Source: Deltaproteobacteria bacterium (lineage in GTDB: Bacteria; Desulfobacterota; GWC2-55-46; UBA9637). From it: a stretch of DNA of 42,754 nt. Below are positions 1,505-42,275 of this stretch, in pieces; position 1 is the stretch's first letter, and every line of letters starts with the position of its first letter. The notes under the pieces are model-generated. The model saw only the letters and a list, made by a program, of their open reading frames with translations, did no database searches and was not told where the DNA came from. The DNA is taken from contig JACQEJ010000084.1 of the NCBI GenBank assembly GCA_016200645.1, positions 1 through 42,754 of the forward strand, given 5' to 3'. Both the position numbers and the translations under genes were made by a program.

Positions 1505-1610
1505 ATAGCTCATAGCTCATGGCTCATAGTAGTTGCTATCAGCTATGAGCTATCAGCTATGAGCTATCAGCTATGAGCCATCAGCTATGAGCTATCAGCT
1601 ATGAGCCATG
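1505..1610. repeat. Heptamer inverted tandem array, family A (GCTATGA/GCTATCA)
   Basis: (TAGCTCA)n arm, short loop, then alternating CTATCAG/CTATGAG units; supplies the ATG at 1601. Confidence 0.95.
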
Positions 1611-2191
1611 ACCTATTAAACATACACTCCATAATACCGCTCTCAAAGGTAAACGGCCCAGGGAACAGGATGGTTGTATTCTTTCAGGGGTGCGATAAAA
1701 ATTGCCCCGGCTGTTTTAATCCTGATACGCATTCATTTGAAACAATCAGCCTTTACTCCCCTGGCGCTCTATTCAAAAAATATCCTCCAAACAAGCGCAT
1801 AGAAGGCATCACCCTAAGCGGCGGCGAGCCGTTTTTGCAGCCGGAGGGATTGTTTGAGCTTTTAAAAACAGCCAAAGAAAACTTTAACCTTTCCACTGTC
1901 GTATACACAGGATTTACTTATAAAGAAATAAGACAAAAGCCGGAATGCCTCCCGTGCCTTGAGTTCATTGATGTGCTGATTGACGGCAGATATGTGGAGT
2001 CAAAAAAAGAACCGTCTCTTCTGGCGAGGGGCTCAACAAACCAAAGATTGTATCTTTTGAGCAGCCGTTACAAAAGAGAAGATTTTTATATGCCTGGAAA
2101 GATAGAGGTAATAATCGGAAAAGACGGCGTCGTTACAAATACAGGCTTCGGCAAGATAGACATCAAACAAGCGATGCAGATTGAAACATGA
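1601..2191 (+). CDS. NrdG-like radical SAM / 4Fe-4S activase-family protein
   Basis: VNGPGNR, CDKNCPGCFN (CxxxCxxC), LSGGEPF, DVLIDGRY and RGSTNQR motifs; no nrdD in the window. Confidence 0.85.
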   Translation: MSHDLLNIHSIIPLSKVNGPGNRMVVFFQGCDKNCPGCFNPDTHSFETISLYSPGALFKKYPPNKRIEGITLSGGEPFLQPEGLFELLKTAKENFNLSTVVYTGFTYKEIRQKPECLPCLEFIDVLIDGRYVESKKEPSLLARGSTNQRLYLLSSRYKREDFYMPGKIEVIIGKDGVVTNTGFGKIDIKQAMQIET

Positions 2192-3036
2192 TAAACATTG
2201 AAACACAGATAAAAAATGCCATAGAGGCAGCGGATGGCATAACCGAACCTATAAGCAGGAAAACCAAATTGCTTCGCATTGCCGATGAACTTCCGAAGAC
2301 AGAAGAATTTACAAAGCTGCGCCTCCATGCAATGAGGCTGGCGCTTGACCTTGCCGATACGGCGCAGCATAAAAAGGCCTCGCTGGAAGAAATCGCTCAT
2401 GAGTTGCCAAAATCGTCTGACATTAGTTTTTACCGAAGCTATACACTCCTCGGCATTGCCGGCAAACTTCCCAAAACAAGCGGTGGATTCATAAACCTTT
2501 ATAAAGAAGCGATTCAACGGGCGCTGGATGCCGCAGCTGTGATAAAAGAGCCGTATTACAGGGAATACACGCTGCTCTATATTACAAAGGAACTGCCGAA
2601 AACAGAAGAATATCTTGCCTTATACAAACAGGCAATAGAAGAGGCCTTTCGCGCGGCAAAGGCTATACACGACCCTTTCGCAAAGGAACATGCCTTAATA
2701 GAGATACTGCAGGAGATTCCGAAAACACCTGAGTTTTCCGGCCTGCTTCATGAGGTAATAAAACAGGCGCTTGATTTTTATGCCGCAAAAACCAGATTGA
2801 AAAACATAGACATACTCGGCAGGATTGATTATCTGATTGCAGGCGAACAAAGAAGGCTTACCGAATCCAAAAAGACAAGATACACTAAAACAAAATACGG
2901 CCTTATCCTTGCCAAAGAGCTTGAGCAAATCGGCCTGCAATCGAATGACATCCGGCTCATAGAAACCGTCCGGCCTTTCACGCACGTCTGGATATCAGCT
3001 ATGGAAAGGAAATACCGTATGATTTTCTCTCTTTAG
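2188..3036 (+). CDS. Alpha-helical repeat protein; probably the N-terminal part of a disrupted fusion with the downstream Hsp70-like gene
   Basis: Five (E/K)(L/I)PK(T/S) motifs, mostly ~38-41 aa apart; ATGA overlap with the upstream gene; the last codons overlap the Hsp70 motif in another frame. Confidence 0.65.
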   Translation: MINIETQIKNAIEAADGITEPISRKTKLLRIADELPKTEEFTKLRLHAMRLALDLADTAQHKKASLEEIAHELPKSSDISFYRSYTLLGIAGKLPKTSGGFINLYKEAIQRALDAAAVIKEPYYREYTLLYITKELPKTEEYLALYKQAIEEAFRAAKAIHDPFAKEHALIEILQEIPKTPEFSGLLHEVIKQALDFYAAKTRLKNIDILGRIDYLIAGEQRRLTESKKTRYTKTKYGLILAKELEQIGLQSNDIRLIETVRPFTHVWISAMERKYRMIFSL

Positions 3037-4484
3037 ACCTCGGCGCAACCAATACGGTCATCATGCGGAGAAAAGGAGGGGCGCAGCCTGAATTCCTCAC
3101 GCTGGGATCTGCGTCAATACTCTATGGCGACACCTATCTGATTCCAACGGTTTGCATCCCTGAGACAAACTCTATCGGCGCAGAGGCAATTAAAAAATCT
3201 CCTCTGATGGACATAAAAAAGATGCTCCTTGAAGATCATCCCGAAGGGAAAAGGTATATGGAAACATATATCCGCATCCTGTTTAAGCGTCTCAAAGAGG
3301 CGCTCTCGCAAGGGAAGGGATTTTCATTTTTTTCAAAAAAGCTGATTGATGCAATATATGTAACTGCGCCTGTAGGTTTTCAAAATTACAGAAAGGCGCT
3401 GCAAAAAATTCTGGAAAAGACAATCAGGGGCGCAAGGATAGAATTTGTCGAAGAGCCGCTGGCAGCAGCCATCGGCTATCAAGTTGCGGAAGAGAGGGAT
3501 AAGGTTGTTTTGATAGTTGACTTCGGAGGATGCACCCTCAATACGATGCTGGCCAGACTGAATATAAACGAGGCGCATGTAATCGCAAAACCGGACACGG
3601 CCCAAACCCTTGGCGGCCATGATATAGACCTCTGGCTTGCGGAATATCTGGCAAAGAAGATCGGCATGTCAAAAGACGATAAATTGCGCGGCGTTCTTGC
3701 ATCCACAGCAGAAGAGATAAAGATTTCCTTATCAGAGCATAGGCTGACGTCATTTGCATGGAATGGAACTGAGATATGCAAGGTGTCAAGGGAAGACCTT
3801 GAGGATCTGCTGGCAAAACACGATTTTTATAAAACCATTGACAGGACAATATCGTATATCCTCAAAAAGGCGGAAAAGGTGGGCGTAAAAAAGGATATGA
3901 TAGAGGCTGTCCTGCTGACAGGCGGCTCTTCGCAGATACCGTCGTTCAAAGAAAAGATTGAGCATCTCTTTCCTGAGCTCGCAAAGGGCAATGCCGTTTA
4001 TGAGCACAGTCCTCTCTCTGCGGCGGCGCATGGGGCTGCGCTCTATCCCACAAAAAATCTCATCGTAGACAGGCACACGAGTCTGGCATGCGCGATCCGT
4101 TATGCCACAAGAGATAAGGACGCGCCCTATTCCTATAAGATTATACTGGAAAACAACGAGTCTTTGCCGCTTGAAAAAACATTCAGGATAGCCCCTGCAA
4201 GGACATTGGGCGCGCAAAATGAGATATATCTGGAATTATTTGAGGTCCCTGAAAATCTGGTTGCGAGGCGATGGGTAATGGAATCAGGCATGGAATTTAT
4301 AAGGCAGGAGATGAAACAGCCCAGGGATATGGCATTAAAGGCCTGCAAGATAATAACCTTGCCGTTTCAAGAGCCTCTGGGTGAGGATATTGATATTACA
4401 TTCTGCGTTAAAGACACGGGCCATTTAGCAGTCAGGTGCGGAAAGGAAAATAGAGAGATAGAAACCGGCATCAGGCTGCAATAA
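2994..4484 (+). CDS. Hsp70/DnaK-like ATPase lacking its own start upstream of the phosphate-1 motif
   Basis: SLDLGATNT at 3030-3056 lies in frame upstream of the ATG at 3063; EEPLAAA, VDFGGCT, LGGHDID and LTGGSSQIP motifs. Start coordinate approximate. Confidence 0.8.
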   Translation: MSYGKEIPYDFLSLDLGATNTVIMRRKGGAQPEFLTLGSASILYGDTYLIPTVCIPETNSIGAEAIKKSPLMDIKKMLLEDHPEGKRYMETYIRILFKRLKEALSQGKGFSFFSKKLIDAIYVTAPVGFQNYRKALQKILEKTIRGARIEFVEEPLAAAIGYQVAEERDKVVLIVDFGGCTLNTMLARLNINEAHVIAKPDTAQTLGGHDIDLWLAEYLAKKIGMSKDDKLRGVLASTAEEIKISLSEHRLTSFAWNGTEICKVSREDLEDLLAKHDFYKTIDRTISYILKKAEKVGVKKDMIEAVLLTGGSSQIPSFKEKIEHLFPELAKGNAVYEHSPLSAAAHGAALYPTKNLIVDRHTSLACAIRYATRDKDAPYSYKIILENNESLPLEKTFRIAPARTLGAQNEIYLELFEVPENLVARRWVMESGMEFIRQEMKQPRDMALKACKIITLPFQEPLGEDIDITFCVKDTGHLAVRCGKENREIETGIRLQ

Positions 4485-4487
4485 TGC

Positions 4488-11410: not shown

Positions 11411-11431
11411 AGCGAGATGAGATGGCCGCTG

Positions 11432-11615: not shown

Positions 11616-11652
11616 ATAGGGAAAGGGCCACAGAAAACAAACCGCCTAAAAG

Positions 11653-11738
11653 GCAGGGGCTGGGGGCTAGGTATTAGGGGCTGGTTAAATTATTTAATGC
11701 TTTTTACCAGACTCTAGTCTCTAGTCCCTAGTCTCTGT
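11653..11738. repeat. Heptamer inverted array, family F (GGGGCTA/TAGTCYC), in rnpB P12
   Basis: GGGGCTG/GGGGCTA arm pairs with (CTAGTCT/CTAGTCC)n using G-U pairs. Confidence 0.85.
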
Positions 11739-12012
11739 ATTTTTAGGTAAGGGTGAAACGGCGGGGTAAGAGCCCACCGCCCCGATGGTGACATCGGGGG
11801 CAGGGCAACCCCCTCCCGGAGCAAGACCAAATAGGAAGGCATTGAAGGATGGCCCGTCCGCGCCTTCGGGTTGGTCGCTTGAGGCGCTGAGCAATCGGCG
11901 TCCCAGATGAATGGTCATCGCCCTTTTGGGGAACAGAATCCGGCTTACGGTCTCGCTTCAGCGATTTTTTTGTGGTTCTTTTGTATGTTAGTTGAAGAAG
12001 CTGCCTAACTAA

Positions 12013-17191: not shown

Positions 17192-17267
17192 AAATACAGG
17201 CTATGGGCAATGGGCTATAGGCTATGGGTTTTCCTATCGCCTATCGCCTATTGCCTATTGCCTGTCT
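17192..17267. repeat. Heptamer inverted array, family B (GGCTATA/GGCAATA), empty copy
   Basis: 37-bp arm identical to 19230-19266 and 24143-24179; fills the clpX-lon gap. Confidence 0.95.
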
Positions 17268-18527: not shown

Positions 18528-18546
18528 AAAACCCCCGCTTAAAGAA

Positions 18547-18625
18547 AGTAGATAGTAGACGGTAGACAGTAGATAGGAACTGCCTTGTTTTTCCCTGTCT
18601 ACTGTCTACTACATACTGTCTACTA
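18547..18625. repeat. Heptamer inverted array, family C
   Basis: (AGTAGAY)n arm and (CTGTCTA)n arm filling the clpP-clpX gap. Confidence 0.92.
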
Positions 18626-19229: not shown

Positions 19230-19315
19230 AAATACAGGCTATGGGCAATGGGCTATAGGCTATGGGGTTTTCTCCTATTGCCTATTGCCTATCGCCTATC
19301 GCCTATAGCCTGTTT
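19230..19315. repeat. Heptamer inverted array, family B, empty copy
   Basis: Same 37-bp arm; the other arm supplies the tig stop codon. Confidence 0.95.
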
Positions 19316-20585: not shown

Positions 20586-20640
20586 AAAGTCAAAAGTCAA
20601 AAGTGAAAAGTCAGAAGTAAAAAGCAAAAACTGCAAAACT
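20586..20640. repeat. Heptamer arm, family D (AAAGTCA), downstream of the four-helix gene
   Basis: AAAGTCA AAAGTCA AAAGTGA AAAGTCA GAAGTAA AAAGCAA; inverted relative to 21044-21084. Confidence 0.9.
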
Positions 20641-20653
20641 ATTATTACTAAAG

Positions 20654-21043
20654 TCATAAGCTCTTTTCTAATCTTGAAATAAAGGATGAAAGCATAGCTC
20701 TAACTTCCTGATACCCTTTTTCTATTGCCAGATGAATAGCTCCTTCTATATAACCCAACTCAAAACTCAAAAAAAGCCAATAATCTGTTTCTGTTGCTTC
20801 CCTTCTCTCAATGGTCAAAGAGTTCTGAAAAACCTTGCCCTTGTTTCCGCCATAACCTTCTGCAATATTGCCAGGAATTGCGGTGGAAGATCTTAACAGT
20901 TGTTTCTTTATTATTCTGGCCTCTTCAGTATTCGGAAATTTACTACAAGTTTTAATGACTGCCTTTGCCAATCCATGAGCCCTTTGCCAAACTATCAAAT
21001 CTCTATAATCCCTAATTTTCTTTTGACCACTATTTTTCTCCAT
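20654..21043 (-). CDS. Four-helix-bundle protein (23S rRNA IVP / Avd-like family)
   Basis: YRDLIVWQRA...QLLRSSTAIPGNIAEG...EATETDYWL...LGYI pattern; 129 aa. Confidence 0.9.
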   Translation of the reverse strand: MEKNSGQKKIRDYRDLIVWQRAHGLAKAVIKTCSKFPNTEEARIIKKQLLRSSTAIPGNIAEGYGGNKGKVFQNSLTIERREATETDYWLFLSFELGYIEGAIHLAIEKGYQEVRAMLSSFISRLEKSL

Positions 21044-21084
21044 ACTTTTGGCTTATGACTTTTGACTTCTGACTCCTGACTGTC
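21044..21084. repeat. Heptamer arm, family D (TGACTTT/TGACTTC/TGACTCC), upstream of the four-helix gene
   Basis: Abuts the ATG; starts 6 nt after the tRNA-Leu CCA. Confidence 0.9.
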
Positions 21085-21090
21085 TTATCT

Positions 21091-21176: not shown

Positions 21177-21270
21177 AATACAGGCGATGGGCTATAGGAA
21201 AATATTTTTTGCCTTTTGTTTTGCCTATTGCCTATTGCCTATAACCTGTATTTTATTGCCTATTGCCTGC
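21177..21270. repeat. Heptamer inverted array, family B, degenerate, in the tRNA-Leu leader
   Basis: AATACAGGCGATGGGCTATAGG arm and (TTGCCTA)n arm. Confidence 0.85.
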
Positions 21271-21326
21271 TTTTTAGTGAAATTATTATAGGGGATTTTT
21301 TTACCCGTTGCAACGGAAAATTAAAC

Positions 21327-24101: not shown

Positions 24102-24108
24102 AATAAAA

Positions 24109-24252
24109 GGCTATAGGCTATTGGCGATAGGCTATGGCCATGAAATACAGGCTATGGGCAATGGGCTATAGGCTATGGGGTTTTCCTATTTCCTATTGCC
24201 TATCGCCTATTGCCTGCTTTTTGCCTATAGCCTGCCTTTATCGCCTATTGCT
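24109..24252. repeat. Heptamer array, family B, downstream of the four-helix gene
   Basis: Contains the 37-bp arm (24143-24179), a local inverted arm and the gene's stop codon. Confidence 0.95.
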
Positions 24253-24608
24253 CCTTGTCTTACTTTAATTAGTTTTCCAATCATTCTACCTAATTCATCA
24301 CAATACGCTTCAATTTTCTCATAAACTGGTTTTTCTAAATATCCTATTTCATAAGCTATCTGAGTTTGTGTTTTTAATTCAGCAAGAGAACCTTTAGCTA
24401 TATAGAAAAAACGAATAGACTCTTTATCTGTGTCACGTTCATCGCCTTCTGCCAAATTACTGGCAATACTTACCGCACTTCGTCTAATTTGGTCTCTTAA
24501 ACCGAAATCACGGCCAAAAATCCCGTCCCCAGATACTTTATAAATAAGAACAGCAATATCCTTAGCGTTTTGCCAAACTATCAAATCTTTAAAGCCTTTT
24601 TTGCCCAT
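24225..24608 (-). CDS. Four-helix-bundle protein (23S rRNA IVP / Avd-like family)
   Basis: FKDLIVWQ...DFGLRDQIRRSAVSIASNLAEG...IAKGSLAELKTQ...GYL pattern; visibly AT-richer than kdsA and kdsD. Confidence 0.93.
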   Translation of the reverse strand: MGKKGFKDLIVWQNAKDIAVLIYKVSGDGIFGRDFGLRDQIRRSAVSIASNLAEGDERDTDKESIRFFYIAKGSLAELKTQTQIAYEIGYLEKPVYEKIEAYCDELGRMIGKLIKVRQGAIGDKGRL

Positions 24609-24611
24609 AGC

Positions 24612-27185
<2,574 letters not shown>

Positions 27186-27204
<19 letters not shown>

Positions 27205-28225: not shown

Positions 28226-29791
28226 TTAGTCTAAAAGTTTTTTGACTTTTAGACTCGCAAACTGTTTTACCACCCCTATCTTCAACACCCTTTTTGTCTC
28301 CGGCCCCACTCTGCCATACGCACCCTGCCTTACACCTGCCACCCATATAATTTCATTGCCGGAGAGGATGAGCGGGATTAAACCTCTTTTGCGCCTCGGA
28401 ATCTTCTTTTCTATAAAGAGGTCTTTTATCTTTTTATGGCCGCTCATGCCGAACGGCACAAACCGGTCGCCGGACCTAAAGTTTCGTATGAGCAGGGGCG
28501 CTTTGAGTTTATCGTAATCAAAATAAGCAACCCTTTGAGATTTTAGATTTACCCCCACACCAAAATCTTTGGTGCGGGGGTTTACGATTTCAGATTTACC
28601 CCCACACCAAAATCTTTGGTGCGGGGGTTTACGATTTTGAACTTTTGTCTTAAACTCTGCAATCCTGAGTCCGCAATCCGCAATTACTTCTGTTCTGCCG
28701 TCTATTTCTAATTCCTGCTCAAATATAATGCCTCTGTCTTTCTTCTGACTTCTGACTCCTGGCTTCTGACTTCTTTCCATTGTCACCCTGTCATACTCCC
28801 TGTAAACAGTCAGGCCATGGGGCAGGTTAATTGAAATGTTCGGCGCTTTACCGGACAGCAGTTTTAAAAAATCCTCAACATGGCAACTGTAAAATCCCGC
28901 TGATGAGCCGAGAAGCTCCTCTGCCGCCATAAAAAACATCCTGACTTTGATTGCATCATGCAGACTGTTAAGTTTTTTTACCGAAAGAGCAACGGATGTT
29001 TTTCCTTTGCCCCTTGACCCTTGACCCTTGACCTTTTGCCCGCCCTTCACGCAATTCGTGTAAGCATCTTTTGCCTGACTGCACAGATAATCTTCATCCC
29101 TCGTAAGGATGCGGGAAAGCCTGGCCATGTCGTTTTTAAAGGCCGGGTTATATCCCATCAGCGCAGGCATAAGTTTAAGCCTTATATGGTTGCGAAGATA
29201 TTTGGCGCTTTGATTTGAGCTGTCTTTTACAAACTTTAGTCTTTTAGCTTCAGCGTATTTTTCTATCTCTACTCTGGTTATATCAAGAAGCGGCCTTATG
29301 TATTTTCCCCTTACAGCCGGAATGCCGCATAAACCCCTTAAGCCGGCGCCATTTAAAAATCTCATTACCATCGTCTCGGCCTGGTCATCCCGATTATGGC
29401 CTGTGGCTATTTTCTGCGCCTTATATTTTTTTGCAGTCTCCTCAAAAAATGCGTATCTCGCCTTTCGCGCGACATCCTGAAGAGAATCCCCCCTTTTGAG
29501 AAGCTTGCGGGTATCTACCCTTTTGCAAACACACGGGACGCCGAGCCTTTTTGCAAGGCTCCTTATAAAGGCCTCATCCATGTCGGATTCTTTGCCCCTT
29601 AAAGAGTGATTGATGTGGGCTGCAATGAGGGAAATCTTATATTCCGCTGCAAGCCTTGTAAGGATATGAAGCAGTACAACCGAATCCACACCGCCGGAGA
29701 CAGCGGCCACGACAGTGTCGCCCCTTTTGAGCATCTTGAATTTTTCAATGGTGTTTTTTGCTTTGTCCAGCATAGGGTTTTCAAGTATCAT
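28226..29791 (-). CDS. tilS: tRNA(Ile)-lysidine synthetase with repeat-derived insertions
   Basis: SGGVDS PP-loop, ARKARY, GHNRDDQAET, RPLL, DSSN and RNHIR motifs; C-terminal KKIKDLFIEKKIP domain. Confidence 0.95.
   Translation of the reverse strand: MILENPMLDKAKNTIEKFKMLKRGDTVVAAVSGGVDSVVLLHILTRLAAEYKISLIAAHINHSLRGKESDMDEAFIRSLAKRLGVPCVCKRVDTRKLLKRGDSLQDVARKARYAFFEETAKKYKAQKIATGHNRDDQAETMVMRFLNGAGLRGLCGIPAVRGKYIRPLLDITRVEIEKYAEAKRLKFVKDSSNQSAKYLRNHIRLKLMPALMGYNPAFKNDMARLSRILTRDEDYLCSQAKDAYTNCVKGGQKVKGQGSRGKGKTSVALSVKKLNSLHDAIKVRMFFMAAEELLGSSAGFYSCHVEDFLKLLSGKAPNISINLPHGLTVYREYDRVTMERSQKPGVRSQKKDRGIIFEQELEIDGRTEVIADCGLRIAEFKTKVQNRKPPHQRFWCGGKSEIVNPRTKDFGVGVNLKSQRVAYFDYDKLKAPLLIRNFRSGDRFVPFGMSGHKKIKDLFIEKKIPRRKRGLIPLILSGNEIIWVAGVRQGAYGRVGPETKRVLKIGVVKQFASLKVKKLLD
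28535..28685. repeat. Composite in-frame insert in tilS: heptamer family G plus two nested 27-28 bp palindromes
   Basis: 47-bp tandem unit 28545-28591 / 28592-28637; TCCGCAA units at 28668-28684. Confidence 0.9.
28742..28774. repeat. Heptamer arm, family D, in frame in tilS
   Basis: CTTCTGA CTTCTGA CTCCTGG CTTCTGA; encodes RSQKPGVRSQK. Confidence 0.85.
29004..29041. repeat. Heptamer arm, family E (CCTTGAC), in frame in tilS
   Basis: Encodes GQKVKGQGSRGKG. Confidence 0.85.
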
Positions 29792-29792: not shown

Positions 29793-29866
29793 GAGTCAAA
29801 GAGTCAGAGGGTCAAAGGGTCAGAGCAAAAACAACAACTTTGACTCTATGACTCTTTGACTCTCTG
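29793..29866. repeat. Octamer inverted array (GRGTCARA / TGACTCTW)
   Basis: Four 8-mers, a loop, and three to four inverted 8-mers filling the lptD-tilS gap. Confidence 0.9.
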
Positions 29867-29876: not shown

Positions 29877-32210
29877 TCATTGCATCTTTCCGCCCGCCCC
29901 GCCGACCTCCCCGATGCCGAGCAAGTTAAATGTCACCATGACTATCTTCTCCTCCGGTCTCTCCGTATAGGTAATCTGAGTATTCCAGCACTGGCGTTTA
30001 TATTCAAGGCCATAAGCAGCCTCAAGGATTGTGTTGTCATTATAGGAATACCGGTTGTGATAGGTAAGGTCAACGGATGGGATAAGCTTAAACCTTAACG
30101 ATGCATCAAGATATTCCATAAGAGGGCTTCTGGCATATCTATAGCTTGCATCCAGTCTGTCGCCTCTTCTGTCCCATATTCCGAGAGATGCATCATACTG
30201 GTTCAGCCAGTTATTATATACATCGTATGCGCCCTTTGCCGCTATCATTGTCCATGACAGGGGCTTTAGCCTGGCCTCTCCGGTAACAGCTGAAAACGGC
30301 CTCCTTTCATCCGCGGGAGAGACGAGCTTCCTTGTCGCCTCATTGATATCATAGCTTTGACTCAAATCCATGTATACATAGTCGCGATAAGAAGGATTGC
30401 CGCCTTCTATGAATTTTCCGGTCAGTATGGTGTTTAATGAATAGGTAATAGTGCTTGTAGCCGCAATCCTATCCACAGCGTCAAAATTGGGGAGGCTGTC
30501 CTGCCTCAGTTCCGGTATATAGGTATATACAATCTTCGGCCTTATCGTGTGCTTTATTTTTTGGACCGAGGCAACCGTGTTGCCGTTTGTTTCTACGCCG
30601 ACCGGGGCGCCCATCCGAAGGATGGGTCGGGCTTGCTCCATATTTTCATCCCATGAATATATCTTCACAAATGTAGTGGTAAGGTCAAGATTCAGGTCAT
30701 ACAAGCTTCTGTCCGAATATCCCTCTTGCAGCGGATTGTTTTCCACCCAGTAGTATGTTTCCCTTATCCCTGCAGACGGCTTCAGCTCAAAATATCCTCC
30801 GGGATTCAATGGCAAAGACACGGCTGGATGAATATCAATGCGCTGCCCCGTATAATCTTTCTCTCTCTCAAAATTGACAAACGAGGATTCCATGGAAAAA
30901 TTAAACGGTGTATCCGGCACCTGCTGGTCTGCGCCGGTCAGGGTAATTTCAGGAAGCCTTTGCAGCGTTGAACTGTCATCGGCAGCCAGGAGGTTGTCAA
31001 AATACCTGAACTGGGCCACAAGATTAAATTTATTCCAGGTCTTTGTCATGGAGACATTGCTCTCAAGGCTTACTAAAGACCGCTCCTGAATGTCTTTCCC
31101 GAAATCGATAAAATATTCATCATCGCTTACTCGTTTTATATCTGCCTTCAAAATAACATCGTGGGGCAAAAGCCCCCTATGCCGGTATTGAAGAAACCAT
31201 CGGTCGTTGGTAGCGGTCATGGGTCTTGACAGGTTGTCTATTCCTTGTCTGAATTCTCTTACCCTGCTTATATCGTTTTCCTGAAAATGGTAGAAAGAAA
31301 ACTCTCCATCCGTAGTTTTGGAAAGCGCATATCTATATTCTATGCCTTTGCCAATACCCCTCAGACTCTCTATATCAAGATAGAAAGTCGCATCGGCAGA
31401 GTCCGATATCGCCCAGAAAAAACTATTGTCAAATATAGCGCCCCTCACTCCGGAATACCCGACCGACGGCATGAGGAATCCAGTCTCCCTCTCGGTTTTC
31501 ACAGGGAATACGACATAAGGGGAATACAGCACCGGAACATTTTTAATGTAGAAAAATGTATTCCATGCATGGATGTATTTACCGAGCGTTACATCGGTAT
31601 CCTGCGCGTAAAAACTCCATGCGGGAGAACTGCCCTCTTCACAGTCGCATGTTGTAAAAAAACTGTGGTGCGCTGAATAGCTCTGCGCTCCTGTTTTTTT
31701 TATCTCATCGCCGACAACATGTACATTCTCCTTTTTAAAAAACAGTCTGCCGTTTATCGCAACGCCTACCTTGGTATCTATATCAATATCCAGGCTGTCG
31801 CCCTTTAATGTGTCTCCCCCCTCATCCACAATCTCCACATTGCCGGAGGCATGAGCGTGCGATGCGCTCATATCAACAATCATCTTGTCCGCCTTGATAG
31901 ATGACTCTCCTTGAATTACTATTACATGCCCCTCGGCATAGTATGTATCTTTAGATTTATCATAGCTGAGCGAATCAGCGGTTATCGCTATCGGTTTCTT
32001 TTCTGAAAATGACTTGCCATCCTCTGCAAAGGCAAGGAGAGGCGGCAGAAACAGCAGACAGCAGACAGTAAGCAGTAACAAGAACGCGGAATGCGGAATG
32101 CCGGGCGCCCGCGCAGTGGGCGCGGAATTTAAATCCGAAATCCTACACCCCAAAGATTTTGGTGTGGTGGTAAATCCGAAATCCGAAATCCGAGGTTTAT
32201 GCACTGTCAT
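29877..32210 (-). CDS. lptD: LPS-assembly protein LptD
   Basis: OstA-like N-domain, FTTC.C, ERETGFLMP, LQRLPEI, KHTIRP and YKRQCW; start placed at ATG 32210 (ATGA overlap with the folC stop). Confidence 0.92.
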   Translation of the reverse strand: MTVHKPRISDFGFTTTPKSLGCRISDLNSAPTARAPGIPHSAFLLLLTVCCLLFLPPLLAFAEDGKSFSEKKPIAITADSLSYDKSKDTYYAEGHVIVIQGESSIKADKMIVDMSASHAHASGNVEIVDEGGDTLKGDSLDIDIDTKVGVAINGRLFFKKENVHVVGDEIKKTGAQSYSAHHSFFTTCDCEEGSSPAWSFYAQDTDVTLGKYIHAWNTFFYIKNVPVLYSPYVVFPVKTERETGFLMPSVGYSGVRGAIFDNSFFWAISDSADATFYLDIESLRGIGKGIEYRYALSKTTDGEFSFYHFQENDISRVREFRQGIDNLSRPMTATNDRWFLQYRHRGLLPHDVILKADIKRVSDDEYFIDFGKDIQERSLVSLESNVSMTKTWNKFNLVAQFRYFDNLLAADDSSTLQRLPEITLTGADQQVPDTPFNFSMESSFVNFEREKDYTGQRIDIHPAVSLPLNPGGYFELKPSAGIRETYYWVENNPLQEGYSDRSLYDLNLDLTTTFVKIYSWDENMEQARPILRMGAPVGVETNGNTVASVQKIKHTIRPKIVYTYIPELRQDSLPNFDAVDRIAATSTITYSLNTILTGKFIEGGNPSYRDYVYMDLSQSYDINEATRKLVSPADERRPFSAVTGEARLKPLSWTMIAAKGAYDVYNNWLNQYDASLGIWDRRGDRLDASYRYARSPLMEYLDASLRFKLIPSVDLTYHNRYSYNDNTILEAAYGLEYKRQCWNTQITYTERPEEKIVMVTFNLLGIGEVGGAGGKMQ
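32050..32193. repeat. Composite repeat forming the LptD N-terminus (families C and G plus nested palindromes)
   Basis: (CAGACAG)n, (GCGGAAT)n, (ATCCGAA)n, CGGGCGCCC..GGGCGCGG and CACCCCAAAGATTTTGGTGTG. Confidence 0.88.
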
Positions 32211-33658
32211 TGAAGCATCTCCAATAGGGCATCCCTCGCTTCTCCCACGGTAAAAACAGAGCCTGTGATGCATATCATATCATCGGCCTTGCTCATGGAC
32301 AGAGCGGCCTTGCAGGCGTCTGCGACATCGTTAATAAATTTTATCTTTAATTTTGGATTTTTAATTCCGCGCCCACTGCGTGGGCGCCCGGCAATCCGCA
32401 TTCCGCATTTTATAAGCTCCCTGTAAAGGATATCCAGCGGCGCAGCCCTCTCTGTCTTTGGACGCGTCAGTATTATTATACTGGCAAGCGGCGCAAGCCT
32501 TGATAATATCCCCTTTATGTCTTTATCCGCCATAATGCCAAGCACAAGAAATATATGTCTTATATGACCTATATGACTTATAATTTTTCTTTTTCGCAAA
32601 TCAACCAAGGCTTCCCTTAAAACCTCCGCCCCTGCCGGATTATGGGCGCAGTCTAAAACAATCAAGGGTTTCTTACGCAATATCTCGAGTCTCCCCGGCC
32701 AGAAAATATTCTGAAACCCTTTTCTTACGGCAGATTCAGGGATACAAAAACCTTTCCCTTGCAAAATCTCCAATGCCGCCAAAGCGCAGGATGCATTCTT
32801 ATATTGATGCCTGCCCAAAAGATTGAGCGTTAAGTTGCTCAAGAACCACCGTCTTCCTTTAAACGCAAAATGATTTTCTTTTTTGACCCTTGACCGCGCC
32901 CAGAGGGCGCCCGCCTTGACCCTTGTATTCTCATCTATAAAAAAATCCCTATCAAACCTGTAAAATATCGCTTTCTTGTTTTTGCATTCAGCCGTCAAAA
33001 CCTTTAGCGCCGCAGGCTTTGTTTCTCCAGATATTAAGACGCCACCCTTCTTTATTATCCCGGCCTTTTCAAATGCTATATCCTTTATCCTGCGCCCAAG
33101 GATTGCCTGATGGTCTCTTGCAATGTTTGTTATTACGGAAACAAGGGGGTTGCCCACATTGGTAGCGTCCAGCCTCCCGCCCAATCCCACCTCCATTATC
33201 GCAAAATCAACTTTTTCTTCCGCAAAATACAAAAACGCCATTGCGGTGGCAAATTCAAAGAAGGTAGGGATTAGGGACTGGGGACTGGGGACTGGGGTTT
33301 TAGATTTTAATCCCAAGCCCCTAGCCTCTAGCCTCTGCCTTATCCTTTCCACCAACTCCGCCACTTTCTTATCCGATATCTCTTGTCCATTTATCTTTAT
33401 CCGCTCATTAAACCGAACAAGGTGCGGTGATGTATAAAGCCCTGCTCTATATCCCGCCTCTGTCAGGATAGACGCTATCATGGCGGAAGTAGAACCTTTG
33501 CCGTTTGTCCCGCCGATATGGATTATAGATAATTTATCCTGCGGATTGCCGAGGGATTTTAAAAGGGGCTTTATCCTTTTAAGCCCCAATTTCATGCCGT
33601 ATTTTTCAAGGCTGGATAGATATTGAATGGGTTTTGTATAACGGGAAGATTTTGGCAT
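32207..33658 (-). CDS. folC: Bifunctional folylpolyglutamate synthase/dihydrofolate synthase with repeat-derived insertions
   Basis: GTNGKGS, YTSPHL..FNERI, EVGLGGRLDATN, WPGRLE, DCAHN and TGS motifs; the upstream in-frame extension to 33706 is REP sequence. Confidence 0.95.
   Translation of the reverse strand: MPKSSRYTKPIQYLSSLEKYGMKLGLKRIKPLLKSLGNPQDKLSIIHIGGTNGKGSTSAMIASILTEAGYRAGLYTSPHLVRFNERIKINGQEISDKKVAELVERIRQRLEARGLGLKSKTPVPSPQSLIPTFFEFATAMAFLYFAEEKVDFAIMEVGLGGRLDATNVGNPLVSVITNIARDHQAILGRRIKDIAFEKAGIIKKGGVLISGETKPAALKVLTAECKNKKAIFYRFDRDFFIDENTRVKAGALWARSRVKKENHFAFKGRRWFLSNLTLNLLGRHQYKNASCALAALEILQGKGFCIPESAVRKGFQNIFWPGRLEILRKKPLIVLDCAHNPAGAEVLREALVDLRKRKIISHIGHIRHIFLVLGIMADKDIKGILSRLAPLASIIILTRPKTERAAPLDILYRELIKCGMRIAGRPRSGRGIKNPKLKIKFINDVADACKAALSMSKADDMICITGSVFTVGEARDALLEMLQ
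32350..32410. repeat. Family G heptamers plus mini-palindrome, in frame in folC
   Basis: Near-inverted copy of 32083-32141. Confidence 0.85.
32551..32582. repeat. 9-bp tandem repeat in frame in folC
   Basis: TATATGTCT TATATGACC TATATGACT; encodes ISHIGHIRHI. Confidence 0.75.
32881..32925. repeat. Family E heptamers interrupted by a mini-palindrome, in frame in folC
   Basis: TTGACCCTTGA-CCGCGCCCAGAGGGCGCCCG-CCTTGACCCTTG. Confidence 0.85.
33264..33339. repeat. Heptamer inverted array, family F, in frame in folC
   Basis: (GGGACTG)n arm and (CTAGCCT)n arm; encodes RLEARGLGLKSKTPVPSPQSLIP. Confidence 0.9.
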
Positions 33659-34582: not shown

Positions 34583-34658
34583 TTAGCTGATAGCTCATGG
34601 CTGATAGCTGATAGTTGATAGTAAAAACTATGAGCCATGAGCTATCAGCTATGAACTA
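34583..34658. repeat. Heptamer inverted array, family A
   Basis: (TAGCTGA)n / (CTATGAG)n; supplies the stop codon of the phosphodiesterase gene. Confidence 0.92.
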
Positions 34659-35420
34659 TATCTCTATCACATCCCCCTGCTTCAAAACCTTGATCCTTTT
34701 GTTATCTAAAAGGGCAATCTCCTTCTCGATTATATCCAGATACTGCGGCTTCATGTGAAATACATATACAGGAACTTTTTTATCGCCAGCCTTTTTTAAT
34801 TCCTCAGCCATGCCTTGCACGGTCAGATGCCCGCTTATAGCCGCCAGATCCGCCATGCTGTTGGGAAACGATGCCTCTATAAAGATAGCCTTGAGATTAT
34901 CCTCTTTCAGAGCAGCATCCCATATCCAATCTGTGTGGCTTGTATCCCCTGTATAAACGATAGCCCCGTCATTATCCTTTATGATATAACCCGTCGCATC
35001 AACAATATGATTCACCCGTATAGGCTTCACAGTCACATCTCCGAGGCACAGCTCTTCTTTCCCCTTAACAGGCAACAACTTAAGTATTGGACCGTTTACC
35101 GATGGAATGGTGGTAAAATCAGGCCAGATTATATTATTCAATACATTGGCCCTGAGTATATCCAGAACACCGTGGGTGCCGATCAGATTTATATGTCCGT
35201 TCCTTTTCCCTATTACATTGTCCGCCAGAAACTGTATGTCCTTGATATGGTCAAGGTGGGTATGGCTTATAATGATGTTGTTTATCTTGAGCTGCTCCTC
35301 AACATTCAAAACTGAAACCACCGTGCCGGCGTCCAAAAGGGTATCGTCATTGATGAGAAAACCGCTGGTCTTATAACCAGGCATTTCAGCGCCGTAACAG
35401 CCGAGAACCTGTATCCTCAT
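34656..35420 (-). CDS. Class II (metallo-beta-lactamase fold) cyclic-nucleotide phosphodiesterase
   Basis: LGCYG, LLDAGT, SHTHLDHI, IWPDF, YTGDT, SGHLT and HMKP motifs. Confidence 0.85.
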   Translation of the reverse strand: MRIQVLGCYGAEMPGYKTSGFLINDDTLLDAGTVVSVLNVEEQLKINNIIISHTHLDHIKDIQFLADNVIGKRNGHINLIGTHGVLDILRANVLNNIIWPDFTTIPSVNGPILKLLPVKGKEELCLGDVTVKPIRVNHIVDATGYIIKDNDGAIVYTGDTSHTDWIWDAALKEDNLKAIFIEASFPNSMADLAAISGHLTVQGMAEELKKAGDKKVPVYVFHMKPQYLDIIEKEIALLDNKRIKVLKQGDVIEI

Positions 35421-35439: not shown

Positions 35440-35582
35440 AGTAGGCAGTAGACTGTAGACAGGGGCTTTTTAGGAGTAGACAGTAGACAGGGAAAGACTT
35501 GTTTCTCCCTGTCTACTGTCTACTGTTTGCTGTTTACTTTCCTTTTTTCCCTGTCTACTTTCTACTACATACTGTCTACTGT
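35440..35582. repeat. Heptamer inverted array, family C (double)
   Basis: Two AGTAGAC blocks facing two CTGTCTA blocks; 35545-35580 differs at one base from 18589-18624. Confidence 0.92.
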
Positions 35583-38005: not shown

Positions 38006-38120
38006 AAGTTGAGAAGAAAGTAGAAAGTTAGAAAGTAGAAAGTTACAACCTTACACTTACAACCTTACAACTTGACTTTCTACTTTATAACTTGATAACT
38101 TTCTACTTTCTTTCTAACTT
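38006..38120. repeat. 7/8-mer inverted array (AGAAAGT(T) / ACTTTCT, with AACCTTAC units)
   Basis: Fills the trpA to HD-GYP gap and supplies the trpA C-terminus and stop. Confidence 0.85.
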
Positions 38121-39002
38121 TATCCCTTTTTTCAGTTTCGCTGCAAACTCCCCCACTTTTTTCGCCAAATCAGGAGCGTCCTGATTCTGCTCAATCACCT
38201 TTACAATGGCGCTCCCAACAATAACAGCGTCTGCCCACTTTGACACCTCTCCGGCCTGTTCCGGGGTAGATATACCAAATCCCACGCCAACTGGCAAGGG
38301 TGTAAACCTTTTAACCTTTTTTACATATTTCTGGATTGTATCTGATAATTCTTTTCTTGCGCCGGTAATCCCTGCAACAGACACATAGTAAATAAACCCG
38401 CTTGCCTGGCTTGCCACAAGCCTCATCCTATTATCATCGCTTGTGGGGGTTAAAAGAAATATAAGATCAAGCCCATTTTTATTCGTATGTGTCTTTAATT
38501 CAGCAGCCTCCTCAGGAGGGAGGTCAACAACAAGAACCCCGTCCGCCCCTGCCTTTTTTGCATCCCTGGCAAATCTATCCGCACCGTAAACGAATATAGG
38601 GTTATAATAACCAAAAAGGACTATCGGAATCCGGCTCTTTTTCCTTACATCTCTTACCAGTTCCAGAACACCCCTTAATGTTGCGCCTTTCTTCAATGCC
38701 CTTTCAGATGCAGCCTGAATAGTCGGCCCATCCGCCATAGGGTCGGAAAAAGGTATGCCCAATTCAACAATATCTGCGCCGGATTTTTCAAGCTCAAAAA
38801 TAATCTCTTTGCTGGTTTTGAAATTGGGATCGCCTGCGGTGATAAAAGTGATAAGAGCCTTTTCACCCTTTGCTTTTAGCCTTGCAAAGGTTTCTTCTAT
38901 CCTGTTTTCTCCTTGACCCTTGATTAAAACCTTCAAGGGCAGGCTTTTGAGTTTTGACCCCCGCTTATTGCCTGCAAGGGCAGGCTTTTGAGTTATCTTC
39001 AT
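38103..39002 (-). CDS. trpA: Tryptophan synthase alpha chain with ~30-aa repeat-derived N-terminal extension
   Basis: FITAGDP, ELGIPFSDPMADGPTIQ, GITG, VGFGI and VIVGSA motifs. Confidence 0.96.
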   Translation of the reverse strand: MKITQKPALAGNKRGSKLKSLPLKVLIKGQGENRIEETFARLKAKGEKALITFITAGDPNFKTSKEIIFELEKSGADIVELGIPFSDPMADGPTIQAASERALKKGATLRGVLELVRDVRKKSRIPIVLFGYYNPIFVYGADRFARDAKKAGADGVLVVDLPPEEAAELKTHTNKNGLDLIFLLTPTSDDNRMRLVASQASGFIYYVSVAGITGARKELSDTIQKYVKKVKRFTPLPVGVGFGISTPEQAGEVSKWADAVIVGSAIVKVIEQNQDAPDLAKKVGEFAAKLKKGIKLERK

Positions 39003-39649: not shown

Positions 39650-40877
39650 ATATCTCTATCCTCATCTCCTTGGCCGCGGTATTCAAATCCTTATCGCCTC
39701 TGCCGGAGAGGTTCACAATGATTATCTTATCCTTGCCGAGTTTCGCCGCCAGCTTCATTGCGTATGCAACCGCATGAGAGCTTTCCAAGGCAGGGATAAT
39801 CCCTTCCAAAAGCGATAAGGTCTTAAAGGCATTCAGCGCCTCTTTATCTGTGATTGCCGTATATTCAATCCTTCCTGCATCGTGCAGATAGCTGTGTTCA
39901 GGCCCGACGCCTGGATAATCAAGCCCCGCTGAAACAGAATGGGTGTGAATTATCTGACCATCGCTGTCCTGCAAAAGATAAGTTTTGCTTCCGTGCAGAA
40001 CGCCAACCTTGCCGGCGCAGATTGACGCCGCATGTCTGCCTGTTTTAATGCCGAACCCTGCCGCCTCAATGCCAATCATCTTCACACCCTTATCCTTTAT
40101 AAAAGGATGGAATAAACCCATTGCATTGCTTCCGCCGCCGACACAGGCGACAAGATAATCCGGAAGCCTGCCTGTCATTTTCTTCATCTGCTCCCTTGCC
40201 TCTTTTCCTATGACCGATTGAAAATCCCTCACCATCATGGGATACGGATGCGGCCCGGCCACGCTGCCGATGATATAAAATGTATTCCACACATTTGTAA
40301 CCCAGTCGCGGAGCGCCTCATTCATTGCATCTTTCAAAGTGCAGCTTCCTGATGAAACCGGATTGACCTTTGCGCCAAGGAGTTTCATTCTGAATACATT
40401 GGGTTTCTGCCTCTCAATGTCCTCTGTTCCCATATATATCTCGCAAGGCAGGCCAAACATGGCCGCAACCGTTGCAGTCGCAACGCCGTGCTGTCCCGCG
40501 CCTGTCTCTGCTATTATCCTTGTCTTACCCATCCGCCGCGCCAAAAGTATCTGACCGATGGTGTTATTGATTTTATGAGCGCCGGTATGGCACAAATCCT
40601 CCCGCTTTAAATATATTTTAGCGCCGCTTGTTTTTTTCGTAAGCCTCTCCGCAAAATAGAGCGGCGTGGGCCTGCCCACATATTCCTTGAGATAATAATC
40701 CAATTCTTCCTTGAAATTTTTATCGCTCTTAAATTTCAGATATGCCTTTTCAAGCTCCAGAACCACCGGCATCAAAGTCTCGGAGATATACCTGCCGCCG
40801 TAAACGCCGAAGTGGCCGTGTTTGTCGGGTAGATTTTGAAATCCTTGACCCTTGACCCTTGACCCTTGACCCTTCAT
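39648..40877 (-). CDS. trpB: Tryptophan synthase beta chain
   Basis: [43 protein letters not shown] and NLSGRGDKD motifs. Confidence 0.98.
40843..40875. repeat. Heptamer arm, family E, forming the TrpB N-terminus
   Basis: (CCTTGAC)x4; encodes [11 protein letters not shown]. Confidence 0.92.
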
Positions 40878-41512: not shown

Positions 41513-42209
41513 TTCCCATCAACTCCCTCAATTTCTTTCCAATATCATTTTCTCTCATAAGCGACTCGCTCACAAGAAAGATATGGACGCCTTTTCTCTT
41601 CAGCATATCTACATCGCTGTAGCTGTTTATCCCGCTTTCGCTCACAACAATCTTGTCTTTTGGAATCATGGAAGCAAGGCGAAGTGTGGTTTTTATATCT
41701 GTCTTAAATGTTTTGAGGTCTCTATTATTTATGCCGATAAGTTTTGCCTTGGTTGACAAAGCCTTTTCCAGCTCTCCCTCATCATGCGCCTCAACGATAC
41801 AGCTCATGCCAAGGTGATGACTTGTGTCGAGAAACAAGTCTATCTCCCCCTTTTCCAGAATCCCCGCTATAAGCAATATTGCATCCGCGCCGGCCGCCCT
41901 GGATTCATAAATCTGATATTCATCAAAGATAAAATCCTTCCGCAGCACAGGGATTGAAACAGCATCCTTTATGTCTTTTAAATAATCTATATGCCCGTGA
42001 AAATATTTTTCCTCTGTGAGAACCGATATGGCCTTCACCTCTGCAATTATCTTTATGCCTTTGCCTTTAACAGCCTTGATAAAATCTCGAGTGGGAGGAA
42101 GCTGCTTAATCCGCATCTTCAGCCCTTGAATAAGCCCTTTCACAGGAAAATCCGCCTTGAGCCTTGTCAATTCTTCTCTTTTATTTGCTATAATTTCGTT
42201 CAGTATCAT
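41505..42209 (-). CDS. trpC: Indole-3-glycerol-phosphate synthase with an internal in-frame deletion (possible pseudogene or assembly error)
   Basis: ISVLTE, LRKDF, GINNRDL and SESGI motifs, but IAEVK joins directly to AISVLT. Confidence 0.9.
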   Translation of the reverse strand: MILNEIIANKREELTRLKADFPVKGLIQGLKMRIKQLPPTRDFIKAVKGKGIKIIAEVKAISVLTEEKYFHGHIDYLKDIKDAVSIPVLRKDFIFDEYQIYESRAAGADAILLIAGILEKGEIDLFLDTSHHLGMSCIVEAHDEGELEKALSTKAKLIGINNRDLKTFKTDIKTTLRLASMIPKDKIVVSESGINSYSDVDMLKRKGVHIFLVSESLMRENDIGKKLRELMGNG

Positions 42210-42235
42210 TTGTTTTTAGTCTTTGTTTTAGTATG

Positions 42236-42275
42236 TTTTCCTGCCTACTGTCTACTGCTTACTGCCTACTGTCTG
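42236..42275. repeat. Heptamer arm, family C
   Basis: CTGCCTA CTGTCTA CTGCTTA CTGCCTA CTGTCTG; supplies the trpD stop codon. Confidence 0.9.

Follow-up and report, generated by a model that had tools for sequence, protein, structure and literature searches.

The stretch of DNA analyzed here (the window) is the whole of a 42,754-base contig (JACQEJ010000084.1; C121) of a genome assembly referred to as G000 (1.98 Mb, 201 contigs, 93.9% complete, 45.6% G+C), and it is crowded with tandem arrays of 7-nt units (heptamers), many of which stand in inverted pairs that form hairpins. Two small genes of the window (4HB1 and 4HB2) encode four-helix-bundle proteins of the family TIGR02436, and both lie in the loop of such a hairpin. 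The other protein genes comprise housekeeping genes (nrdG, deoB, glyS, dnaG, rnhA, ftsEX and HU), the lon-clpX-clpP-tig block, a porin gene, kdsD-kdsA-pyrG-kdsB, tilS, lptD, folC, accD, genes for a metallo-beta-lactamase (MBL)-fold phosphodiesterase (PDE), a CRP-type regulator and a GAF/HD-GYP protein, and trpDCFBA. Four tRNA genes and the RNase P RNA gene (rnpB) are also present, and no rRNA match was found in the window. No named record exceeds 74% identity to ClpX of this organism, the nearest records being those of Thermodesulfobacteriota and Binatia metagenome-assembled genomes, and the window DNA was matched by groundwater metagenome runs. Short-read contigs of four groundwater DNA runs (Logan) stop at the arrays. 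A previous reading made from the letters of the window alone (the sequence-only reading) had proposed that at least seven heptamer families occupy gene junctions, donate start and stop codons, and share one architecture that points to a common generating mechanism with family-specific partners rather than random slippage. As a whole, this interpretation is partly supported by the present analysis.

Excess, architecture and turnover of the heptamer arrays

Arrays were called with Tandem Repeats Finder (TRF) on the window and on the whole genome, a third-order Markov sequence equal in size to the genome served as chance control, and all gene-versus-gap positions given for the genome rest on crude calls of open reading frames (ORFs). 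Period 7 accounted for 38 of 68 TRF rows in the window and for 983 of 2145 rows genome-wide (period 14 for 224 and period 21 for 53), compared with 55 of 386 rows in the control, and the suspected excess of this period was thus borne out. The same could be observed for the inverted geometry of the arms: among 280 pairs of neighbouring arrays, 128 were inverted (at most one mismatch per unit) and 12 were direct, where random pairing gives 4.1% for each. G000 contains 209 canonical heptamer units and six or more major families. Array bases were 59% non-coding, compared with 17% of the genome, and the 983 arrays were divided into 532 intergenic, 360 coding and 91 boundary copies.

A typical element, as seen in 26 examples of family B (GGCNATR), begins with an A-rich run and continues with four units plus ∼3 nt, a loop of ∼3–28 nt rich in A/T, the inverse arm and a T-rich run. 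One arm amounts to about 4.4 tandem heptamers, that is, 30–31 nt (4.0–4.5 copies). The lengths of arrays were sharply peaked (115 arrays at 31 nt, 75 at 30 nt and 43 at 28 nt), no array of the Markov control exceeded 3.5 copies, and the arm measured 30–31 nt, by median as well as by mode, in each of six unrelated unit families. The proposal of one architecture independent of sequence, to which the A-rich flank on one side and the T-rich flank on the other also belong, has its best support in this common ruler. Hairpins of ∼74 nt had a mean minimum free energy of about -31 kcal/mol. A universal ACAG...CTGT terminus was considered and rejected: the motif was enriched (26% and 25% vs 8% and 6.5%), mainly in families that have CAG in the unit, and it is not a shared end.

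The turnover of these elements was followed in the tig-clpP-clpX-lon block of nine genomes of the same family (ClpX 89–94% identical). In the clpX/lon spacer, most of the nine genomes have a hairpin of four plus four units, and the unit differs in nearly each of them: GGCAATA in G000, CAGTGAG in G001, CGATTTA in G004, GGGTCAA in G009, a GGGGTGA-like unit in G008, GGTTAAG in G007 (of which the G006 element is a shorter form) and AGTTCGG in G003, where the loop holds an insertion of ∼300 nt; G002 has a 33-nt spacer with no array. On the other hand, the tig/clpP element is common to G000, G003 and G007, with 4, 4 and 3 units, respectively, in one arm, and G002 and G006 have an empty spacer of 29 nt at this junction. 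Among 31 comparisons of orthologous junctions, an array was present in both genomes in 5 cases (with the same unit in 1), in G000 only in 16, in the other genome only in 1 and in neither in 9. A 30-nt arm whose unit variants follow an idiosyncratic order is found in seven exact copies on five contigs of G000, including positions 17,199–17,228 of the window, and the 47 arms of family B comprise 37 distinct sequences. Thus, three processes take place: a drift in unit number that fits slippage, the copying of whole arms, and the gain, loss or replacement of whole elements. With regard to miniature inverted-repeat transposable elements (MITEs), which have terminal inverted repeats, a target-site duplication and a cognate transposase, the arms act as long inverted ends and one arm was copied seven times; a target duplication was not recognized at filled vs empty junctions, and no transposase could be linked to the elements. 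Insertions of ∼300 nt with ends of the type GTCATTCCCG...CGGGAATGAC were also seen in or beside hairpin loops, at clpX/lon in L092 (G003) and at clpP/clpX and tig/clpP in L097 (G008); these look like a separate MITE-like family.

Elements were found in short spacers that follow stop codons, in the P12 helix loop of RNase P RNA and in frame inside genes. For the window, the sequence-only reading had listed 30 repeat sites. Twenty of them have a TRF row of about the given period starting within 10 nt, two (28535 and 38911) fall under rows of period 47 and 41, and eight (21177, 14107, 27117, 35440, 32881, 11653, 32350 and 36249) have no TRF row within 10 nt and only two or three degenerate units. 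The supposed 8-mer at 38006 is of period 7/15 according to TRF, and the family designated G (ATCCGMA) is poorly defined, as its site 28535 belongs to a 47-nt repeat. It should be noted that the assignment to gene junctions applies to 17 of the 30 sites, which lie between protein ORFs (one of these, 11653, in rnpB), whereas 13 are inside the longest ORFs (tilS, folC, the 5' part of lptD, the 5' parts of trpA and trpB, the end of pyrG and the start of 4HB2). All eight proposed codon overlaps proved correct on coordinates and lie inside TRF arrays: the stops of tig, kdsA, kdsB, trpD, trpA and the MBL/PDE gene, and the ATGs at 1601 and 24608. No preference for co-directional gaps could be observed, hairpins being present in 114 of 1255 co-directional, 13 of 185 convergent and 7 of 144 divergent gene pairs.

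Four-helix-bundle genes and array density across genomes

The TIGR02436 matches scored 95.9 bits for 4HB1 and 116.2 bits for 4HB2 (cut-off 24). 4HB2 also matched PDB entry 2GSC (E 1.6e-14), an entry of five chains whose structure has been described as a homopentamer (PMC4990558), and, weakly, the Avd model NF033474 (E 1.1e-6). 4HB1 is located between tig and tRNA-Leu and 4HB2 between kdsA and kdsD. G000 has three good TIGR02436 copies, two in the window and one on contig C109, and all of them lie in the loop of a heptamer hairpin in which the start codon meets or is covered by the end of one arm and the inverse arm comes after the stop; the arms belong to families D, B and A for 4HB1, 4HB2 and the C109 copy, respectively. 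When a loose bracketing test was applied to G000, three of three four-helix genes passed, compared with 15 of 1613 other genes. Bracketing by inverted arrays of the same family was nevertheless rejected as a general mark of cargo, the 15 other genes being housekeeping genes that are enclosed by two full hairpins belonging to the abundant families A and B.

We then considered 42 homologous four-helix loci from 11 related genomes (excluding weak and partial hits as well as those of G016, G018, G019, G021, G024 and G035) and 80 metagenome loci related to 4HB2. Of the latter, 70 were usable for 7-mer sharing and 72 for co-divergence and local alignment, the remainder having no flank; they were found from a five-sequence alignment and therefore represent relatives of the 4HB2 clade only. 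Inverted 7-mers were shared between the 50 nt upstream and the 150 nt downstream of the gene in 29 of 42 copies of the relatives and in all three copies of G000, compared with 150 of 1609 control genes, and in 33 of 70 metagenome loci, compared with 8.9 expected under permuted pairing. Local alignment of the arms exceeded the 99th percentile of shuffles in 54 of 117 loci (26 of 45 from genomes and 28 of 72 from metagenomes) vs 17 of 600 control genes. Strict period 7 was less general: a period-7 stretch (at least 15/21) was present in one flank in 83 of 117 loci and in both flanks in 35, and some cassette arms are built of 8-nt units. A duplex-energy test of the arms (60-nt flanks) placed only 9 of 42 loci below the first percentile of controls, a low yield because AT-rich arms and arms beyond an inner hairpin were missed.

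Arm units and proteins also diverged together. Among non-syntenic pairs, which are mutually dependent and not independent samples, the arm units agreed within two mismatches in 50% of pairs with protein identity of at least 70% (n=34), 33% at 55–70% (n=769), 14% at 40–55% (n=1001) and 12% below 40% (n=1577). For example, 4HB2 and its homolog L117 are 76% identical and come from different genera; their flanks are not shared, and both have GGCNATR units. The pairs L133/L136 and L114/L118 behave likewise. At another locus (L106; G002:C22:143600-145900), heptamer arrays flank an open frame of 519 aa that begins with a TIGR02436 match; this may be either a fusion or the read-through of a cassette into the next gene.

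Array density was sampled over 8–90 kb per genome in 35 genomes of the class (another six fell short of 8 kb and were excluded), with some regions chosen around hits of four-helix genes or of Y1 (IS200-like) transposase genes. The number of arrays per 10 kb correlated with the number of TIGR02436 matches, as the sequence-only reading had anticipated (Spearman 0.73 in 35 genomes and 0.58 in the 25 genomes outside the same family, both uncorrected for kinship). Genomes with the gene had 2.85 arrays per 10 kb (n=18), whereas those without it had 0.38 (n=17), a value close to the Markov background; 80 distant ClpX loci gave 0.45. Contrasts within genera were for the link between gene and density in four cases and against it in two. 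Thus, none of the three outcomes that had been named beforehand as speaking against a shared mechanism (no period-7 excess, no excess of inverted arms and no correlation with four-helix genes) was observed.

Features of the window

The positions of the elements and of the features associated with them are listed below.

Table. Heptamer elements and related features of the window (positions in the 42,754-base contig)
Feature	Position	Strand	Details
Family A (GCTATSA) element upstream of nrdG	1505..1616		Short arm 1505-1529, long inverse arm 1535-1616 (TRF); nrdG ATG (1601) within the array, nrdG family match begins at residue 7
rnpB (RNase P RNA)	11409-11963	+	Rfam RF00010, 298.8 bits
GGGGCTR-armed hairpin (family F) in the loop of helix P12 in rnpB	11644..11752	+	Rfam RF00010; not a gene junction
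tRNA-Asp/tRNA-Val region	14023-14277		Degenerate family C stretch (14107) between the two tRNAs
Family B (GGCNATR) hairpin filling the clpX/lon spacer	17192..17267		Arms 17199-17228 and 17233-17263; TRF
Family C (TAGACAG) hairpin, clpP/clpX spacer	18543..18624		TRF; G002, G007 and G009 without element (40-nt spacers)
Family B hairpin, tig/clpP spacer	19230..19311		Holds tig stop (19303-19305); same element at same junction in G003 and G007
Cassette 1	20586..21090	-	AGTCARA arm (~21044-21090), 4HB1 (20654-21043), inverse arm (20586-20638)
Degenerate family B hairpin upstream of tRNA-Leu (21091-21173)	21177..21276		
Cassette 2	24108..24640	-	GGCNATR arm 24603-24634, including 4HB2 ATG (24606-24608) and kdsA stop (24612-24614); 4HB2 24225-24608; inner family B hairpin ~24145-24215; outer inverse arm 24108-24140
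Single family D array (CTGACTC x4.9)	25460..25493		Last codons of pyrG
Family C hairpin, kdsB/pyrG spacer	27117..27204		Holds kdsB stop (27186-27188)
Repeats within tilS ORF	28539..29033		47-nt x2.1 (28539-28637), GCAATCC (28659-28684), CTTCTGA (28742-28774), TTGACCC (29007-29033)
Hairpin of 8-nt units GAGTCAAA, lptD/tilS spacer	29793..29863		TRF period 8 rows at 29793 and 29841
ACAGCAG, GAATGCG and AAATCCG arrays, 5' part of lptD ORF	32051..32193		
Arrays and GC-rich palindromes within folC ORF	32350..33340		32391-32409, 9-mer 32552-32582, ~32881, 33274-33340
Family A hairpin, MBL/PDE|accD spacer	34584..34659		Holds PDE-gene stop (34656-34658)
Family C arrays, CRP|PDE spacer	35440..35582		35475-35490, 35509-35582
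AGAAAGT arrays and inverse, trpA/HD-GYP spacer	38006..38133		Hold trpA stop (38103-38105)
41-nt x2 repeat with TTGACCC units	38913..38994		First 31 codons of longest trpA ORF
Perfect CCTTGAC x4.6 array	40843..40874		trpB codons 2-12, just after ATGA overlap with trpF
Family C array, trpD/trpC spacer	42236..42271		Holds trpD stop (42266-42268)

The RNase P RNA gene is 555 nt long on a model of 367 positions. The sense strand of its P12-loop insert folds into one long helix by means of G-U pairs (-57.5 kcal/mol, compared with -26.1 kcal/mol for the antisense strand), and two further hairpin expansions of 54 and 67 nt are present where the model has 4 and 10 nt. ORFs 11422-11619 and 11743-12021, which overlie rnpB, are probably spurious. 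Heptamer repeats within an RNase P RNA gene have reportedly been seen before, in heterocystous cyanobacteria, to judge by the title of a work by Vioque of 1997. As to the tRNA genes, which here adjoin elements, tRNA-Leu is flanked by cassette 1 and a family B hairpin.

Several arrays lie within ORFs. TilS domain matches are confined to residues 27–209 and 433–479 of the tilS product. Each copy of the 47-nt tilS repeat has its own small hairpin CCCCCACACC...GGTGCGGGGG, and the summed contig depth over 27944-29271 reached 5–15 times the value of adjacent bins in runs X1, X3 and X4, so this element seems to occur in multiple copies in the community. The folC match covers residues 42–492 on a model of 400 positions. 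GC-rich palindromes of the type GCGCCCACTGCGTGGGCGC between GAATGCG/CGCATTC arms occur in or beside folC and lptD (32082-32130, 32350-32409 and ∼32881) and look like a second small element nested in heptamer hairpins. On the minus strand, the ACAGCAG array (32051-32068) codes for the hydrophobic, leucine-rich core of the signal peptide predicted for LptD FLLLLTVCCLLFLPPLLAFA. The repeat stretch at the 5' end of the longest trpA ORF is probably leader sequence and not protein, the TrpA model beginning at residue 39. At 40843-40877, the trpB array (GGGTCAA, 4.6 units) places ∼11 extra residues ahead of the conserved TrpB start, in a gene whose ATG overlaps the trpF stop (ATGA).

Origin of the elements and comparison with known systems

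What can be seen in these genomes is a defined architecture with a common arm length, copying and turnover of the elements, insertion in a helix loop, and a physical and evolutionary tie to one gene family. On this basis, we somewhat favor, with a probability of roughly 55%, the view that the window samples a dense population of small palindromic insertion elements, whose full-length form is a cassette similar to the intervening sequences (IVSs) of rRNA genes and contains a four-helix-bundle gene. Such a population would consist of two forms, full-length elements with a TIGR02436/PF05635 (S23p- or Avd-like) gene in the loop and gene-less miniatures, the latter representing most copies. The elements may be selfish or mobile, beyond the effect of local slippage alone, and the four-helix protein would be the leading candidate for a family-specific partner that recognizes its own arms. 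The donated start and stop codons might then be a by-product of arms that abut ORF ends and of units that contain TAG, TGA and ATG. With regard to a shared mechanism with family-specific partners, the genes inside the hairpins and the co-divergence of arm units and protein speak for the sequence-only reading, whereas the notion of one partner per family is not supported by a count of three good four-helix genes for six or more families.

A bolder version, which we regard as doubtful, assigns each heptamer family to one pentameric four-helix-bundle (S23p/Avd-like) protein as its cognate nucleic-acid site. The 30–31-nt arm would present five 3-nt cores at a spacing of 7 nt, one for each subunit of the ring; the gene-in-hairpin cassette would be autonomous, gene-less hairpins would be miniature derivatives or extra binding sites, and insertion would take place into helix loops of mRNA spacers, rRNA and RNase P RNA. 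That an arm of four units plus 3 nt gives five cores, equal to the number of subunits of the pentamer, is a speculation.

A number of observations weigh against the preferred view of insertion elements with a four-helix cassette. G000 has only three good four-helix genes for ∼180 hairpins; among 961 gene-less arrays, 43% match the arms of these three genes and 57% match none, and the matching of arms within the same genome was weak (diagonal 0.21 vs off-diagonal 0.125, small samples). The correlation of density ignores kinship and draws in part on regions chosen around four-helix or Y1 hits. Moreover, no gene was found in G038 (96% complete) and G006, which have 1.45 and 1.39 arrays per 10 kb, respectively, and G013, G024 and G035 carry genes at only 0.2–0.3 arrays per 10 kb. 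Target-site duplications were not recognized in comparisons of filled and empty junctions, and neither a transposase linked to the elements nor an excision product was identified. Short-read joints (20623>21046 and 24131>24605) do skip the two 4HB ORFs; they rest on a repeat of 24–36 nt and may represent other copies. Most family B copies combine unit variants in a way of their own, an outcome not predicted by simple copy-and-paste. The arms are only ∼80% complementary, and register-specific covariation was not found: compared with registers shifted by one or two units, the near-mirror register was better in 72 hairpins, tied in 17 and worse in 75, and variable unit positions showed no compensation between the two arms. 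Template-switch symmetrization and compensatory pairing were unsupported by the register test. Finally, sense-strand bias was absent both in gene-less hairpins of 114 co-directional gaps (60 sense vs 54 antisense) and in cassettes (31 vs 45), and thus an IVS-like RNA role has no support outside rnpB. An intrinsic better-folding strand for each family was also considered and gave no consistent outcome.

Plain replication slippage, in which the polymerase slips preferentially on 7-nt units and both the hairpins and the four-helix neighborhood are incidental, appears unlikely as the whole explanation. In many prokaryotes no long simple repeat is commoner than the heptamer, and a polymerase contact of 7 nt has been proposed (Mrazek 2007, as reported in PMC4679880 and PMC4692102). 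The whole-unit differences between the tig/clpP arms of G007, G003 and G000 (3, 4 or 5 units), the shortened clpX/lon element of G006 relative to G007 and the absent covariation would all be in line with such a process, and slippage may still be a source of change in unit number, given that orthologous elements differ by whole units in arm copy number. However, slippage does not readily account for an arm length that peaks at 30–31 nt in six unrelated families with no decay, for inverted pairs that represent 46% of neighboring arrays vs 4% by random pairing, for seven copies of an identical 30-nt arm with idiosyncratic variant order, or for unrelated unit families at the same junction in sister genomes. 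Background levels of arrays in 17 related genomes, presumably with similar replication enzymes, and the strong tie of the arrays to one gene family also argue against it. Improbable to a greater degree is the possibility that the hairpins are locally selected RNA elements (terminators or attenuators, RNase III sites, mRNA stabilizers or devices of translation coupling) for which repeats are an easy way to a long stem. Their location between a stop codon and the next Shine-Dalgarno sequence, A-rich left and T-rich right flanks resembling two-way terminators, the strong folding noted above and the G-U pairing of the rnpB insert on the sense strand are what such elements might show; IVS stems are substrates of RNase III (PMC4990558), and translational roles have been proposed for TAACTGA repeats (PMC4679880). 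Against this stand the lack of a sense-strand advantage and of compensatory changes, the 360 of 983 arrays that lie inside coding regions, and the spacers of 29–40 nt with no element at the same junctions in the sister genomes G002, G006, G007 and G009. In the 14–34 kb region, 36 terminator-like sites were counted vs 21.2 expected, and only one heptamer hairpin there (27180-27158) fits the intrinsic-terminator pattern of a short G+C-rich stem, a small loop and a U tract.

The least probable of the alternatives, and in our opinion a very improbable one, is movement in trans of doublets similar to repetitive extragenic palindromic (REP) sequences by Y1 tyrosine transposases, one for each repeat family, as in REPINs and their REP-associated tyrosine transposases (RAYTs). 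G000 encodes two Y1_Tnp proteins (PF01797), one of them fused to a DnaA_C helix-turn-helix, genomes of family f1 have 1–13 copies, Y1 counts correlated with heptamer density (Spearman 0.49, n=33), and 7–17-nt tandem repeats stand beside several Y1 genes. However, this correlation is below that of the four-helix genes (0.73), 16 of 23 Y1 genes are bracketed by their own single inverted motifs of 12–20 nt (for example, GGGGACGGTTCT and GGGTCAGGTCTAC) instead of heptamer arrays, a period-7 score of at least 17/21 was reached on either flank in none of the 23 loci, the flank motif of the C69 copy occurs only three times in G000, and G028 has arrays with no Y1 match. The C78 copy is flanked by GGGTCAA-type motifs resembling family E, which leaves doubt for that family. 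Regarding the Y1 genes themselves (220–330 aa; C69:14462-15136 and C78:17628-18590 in G000, and L206-L225), some are fused to the DnaA_C helix-turn-helix, a TTGACA-like box follows the left copy of the inverted motif, the tandem repeats often stand beside the right end, and the sister genome G005 has up to 13 copies.

The excess of bacterial heptamers has been recognized in cyanobacteria since 1990 and throughout the prokaryotes since 2007, and we know of no general explanation for it other than polymerase slippage. To our knowledge, TIGR02436/PF05635 is a large and widespread family with no known function outside Avd of diversity-generating retroelements (DGRs). If heptamers and the four-helix family were parts of one system, both puzzles would become open to ordinary binding and deletion experiments, and the elements with their four-helix link may help explain the long-noted excess of 7-base repeats; should the cognate-site version be true, the system would be a main source of this excess in bacterial genomes. 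The elements also have practical consequences. They rewrite gene ends (six stop codons and two start codons supplied in 43 kb), lengthen enzymes as well as RNase P RNA, fragment short-read assemblies and mislead programs that call ORFs, as illustrated by the two ORFs over rnpB.

Several known systems are similar in part. STRRs (short tandemly repeated repetitive sequences) and long simple sequence repeats, such as the STRR heptamers of Calothrix and Anabaena, the excess described by Mrazek (2007), GGGAATC of Xanthomonas, GGGGAYT of Nostoc and TAACTGA of Beggiatoaceae, are likewise tandem 7-nt units, several per genome, mostly intergenic and patchy across taxa; an excess of head-to-tail heptamers and several mainly non-coding units per genome are also found here. 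Xanthomonas heptamers have mostly four units, some of them inverted, and vary in length and sequence between the same genes of close relatives (PMC4692102), and the TAACTGA repeats of BOGUAY are direct, with one indirect case among 170 sets (PMC4679880). By contrast, the present host is a small-genome groundwater bacterium with more families (the 209 canonical units), in which the paired-arm hairpin is the rule and not the exception, and no link with a four-helix-bundle gene is reported in the published accounts compared. In Geobacter metallireducens, four or five heptanucleotides in tandem make up multicopy elements (GGGACCG/GGACCGG, 49 copies; MTYCTGA class 3 sites), which resemble ours in unit number, in dozens of copies between and within genes, in some strand-switching pairs and in a host of deltaproteobacterial type (PMC2700814). 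The arms of about four units, the multicopy state and the intergenic, coding and boundary positions in G000 agree with this type. On the other hand, the Geobacter elements were interpreted as regulatory RNA elements or binding sites of a global regulator, and no four-helix link, species turnover or common arm length across families is described in the passages of that paper compared here (PMC2700814).

REP/REPIN-RAYT systems share with our elements short, multicopy extragenic palindromes and Y1 genes flanked by inverted motifs; they differ in that the Y1 flanks are single motifs of their own, whereas the arms here are tandem arrays of many unrelated families. The weak match of 4HB2 to NF033474 and the description of PF05635 as Avd-like (PMC10053308) recall DGRs; however, no template/variable repeat pair was seen, and no reverse transcriptase (PF00078) match was found in G000 at 93.9% completeness, so a DGR-like retro-mechanism is without support.

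A close likeness to cassettes 1 and 2 is provided by ORF-bearing IVSs of 23S rRNA, which are also cited for Leptospira, Xanthomonas and Brucella (PMC4990558). The IVS of Coxiella burnetii has an S23p ORF in a stem loop and, directly upstream of the ORF, GACAGAT tandem heptamers whose number varies between strains; both the inverted-repeat stem around a PF05635/TIGR02436 ORF and the upstream heptamers correspond to our cassettes, as does insertion in the loop of an RNA helix to the rnpB P12 insert (PMC4990558). A TIGR02436 ORF and inverted arms flanking it are found here in both window copies, the C109 copy and 54 of 117 homologous loci. The elements differ from these IVSs in lying between or inside protein genes and in rnpB, with none in helix 25 or 45 of 23S rRNA, in being mostly without an ORF, and in having arms without sense-strand pairing bias. 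We found no paper tying TIGR02436/PF05635 to heptamer hairpins in general, the gene link being found only for the Coxiella IVS; the Geobacter supplement may bear on this point. Thus, the heptamer excess, the four-unit, inverted and variable arrays of Xanthomonas, the Geobacter elements of four and five heptamers, the TAACTGA repeats and the Coxiella heptamers beside the S23p ORF are already published, and our data add to them the arm-length ruler, the co-divergence test, the negative results on pairing covariation and strand bias, the turnover at junctions, the correlation test and the test of the RAYT rival.

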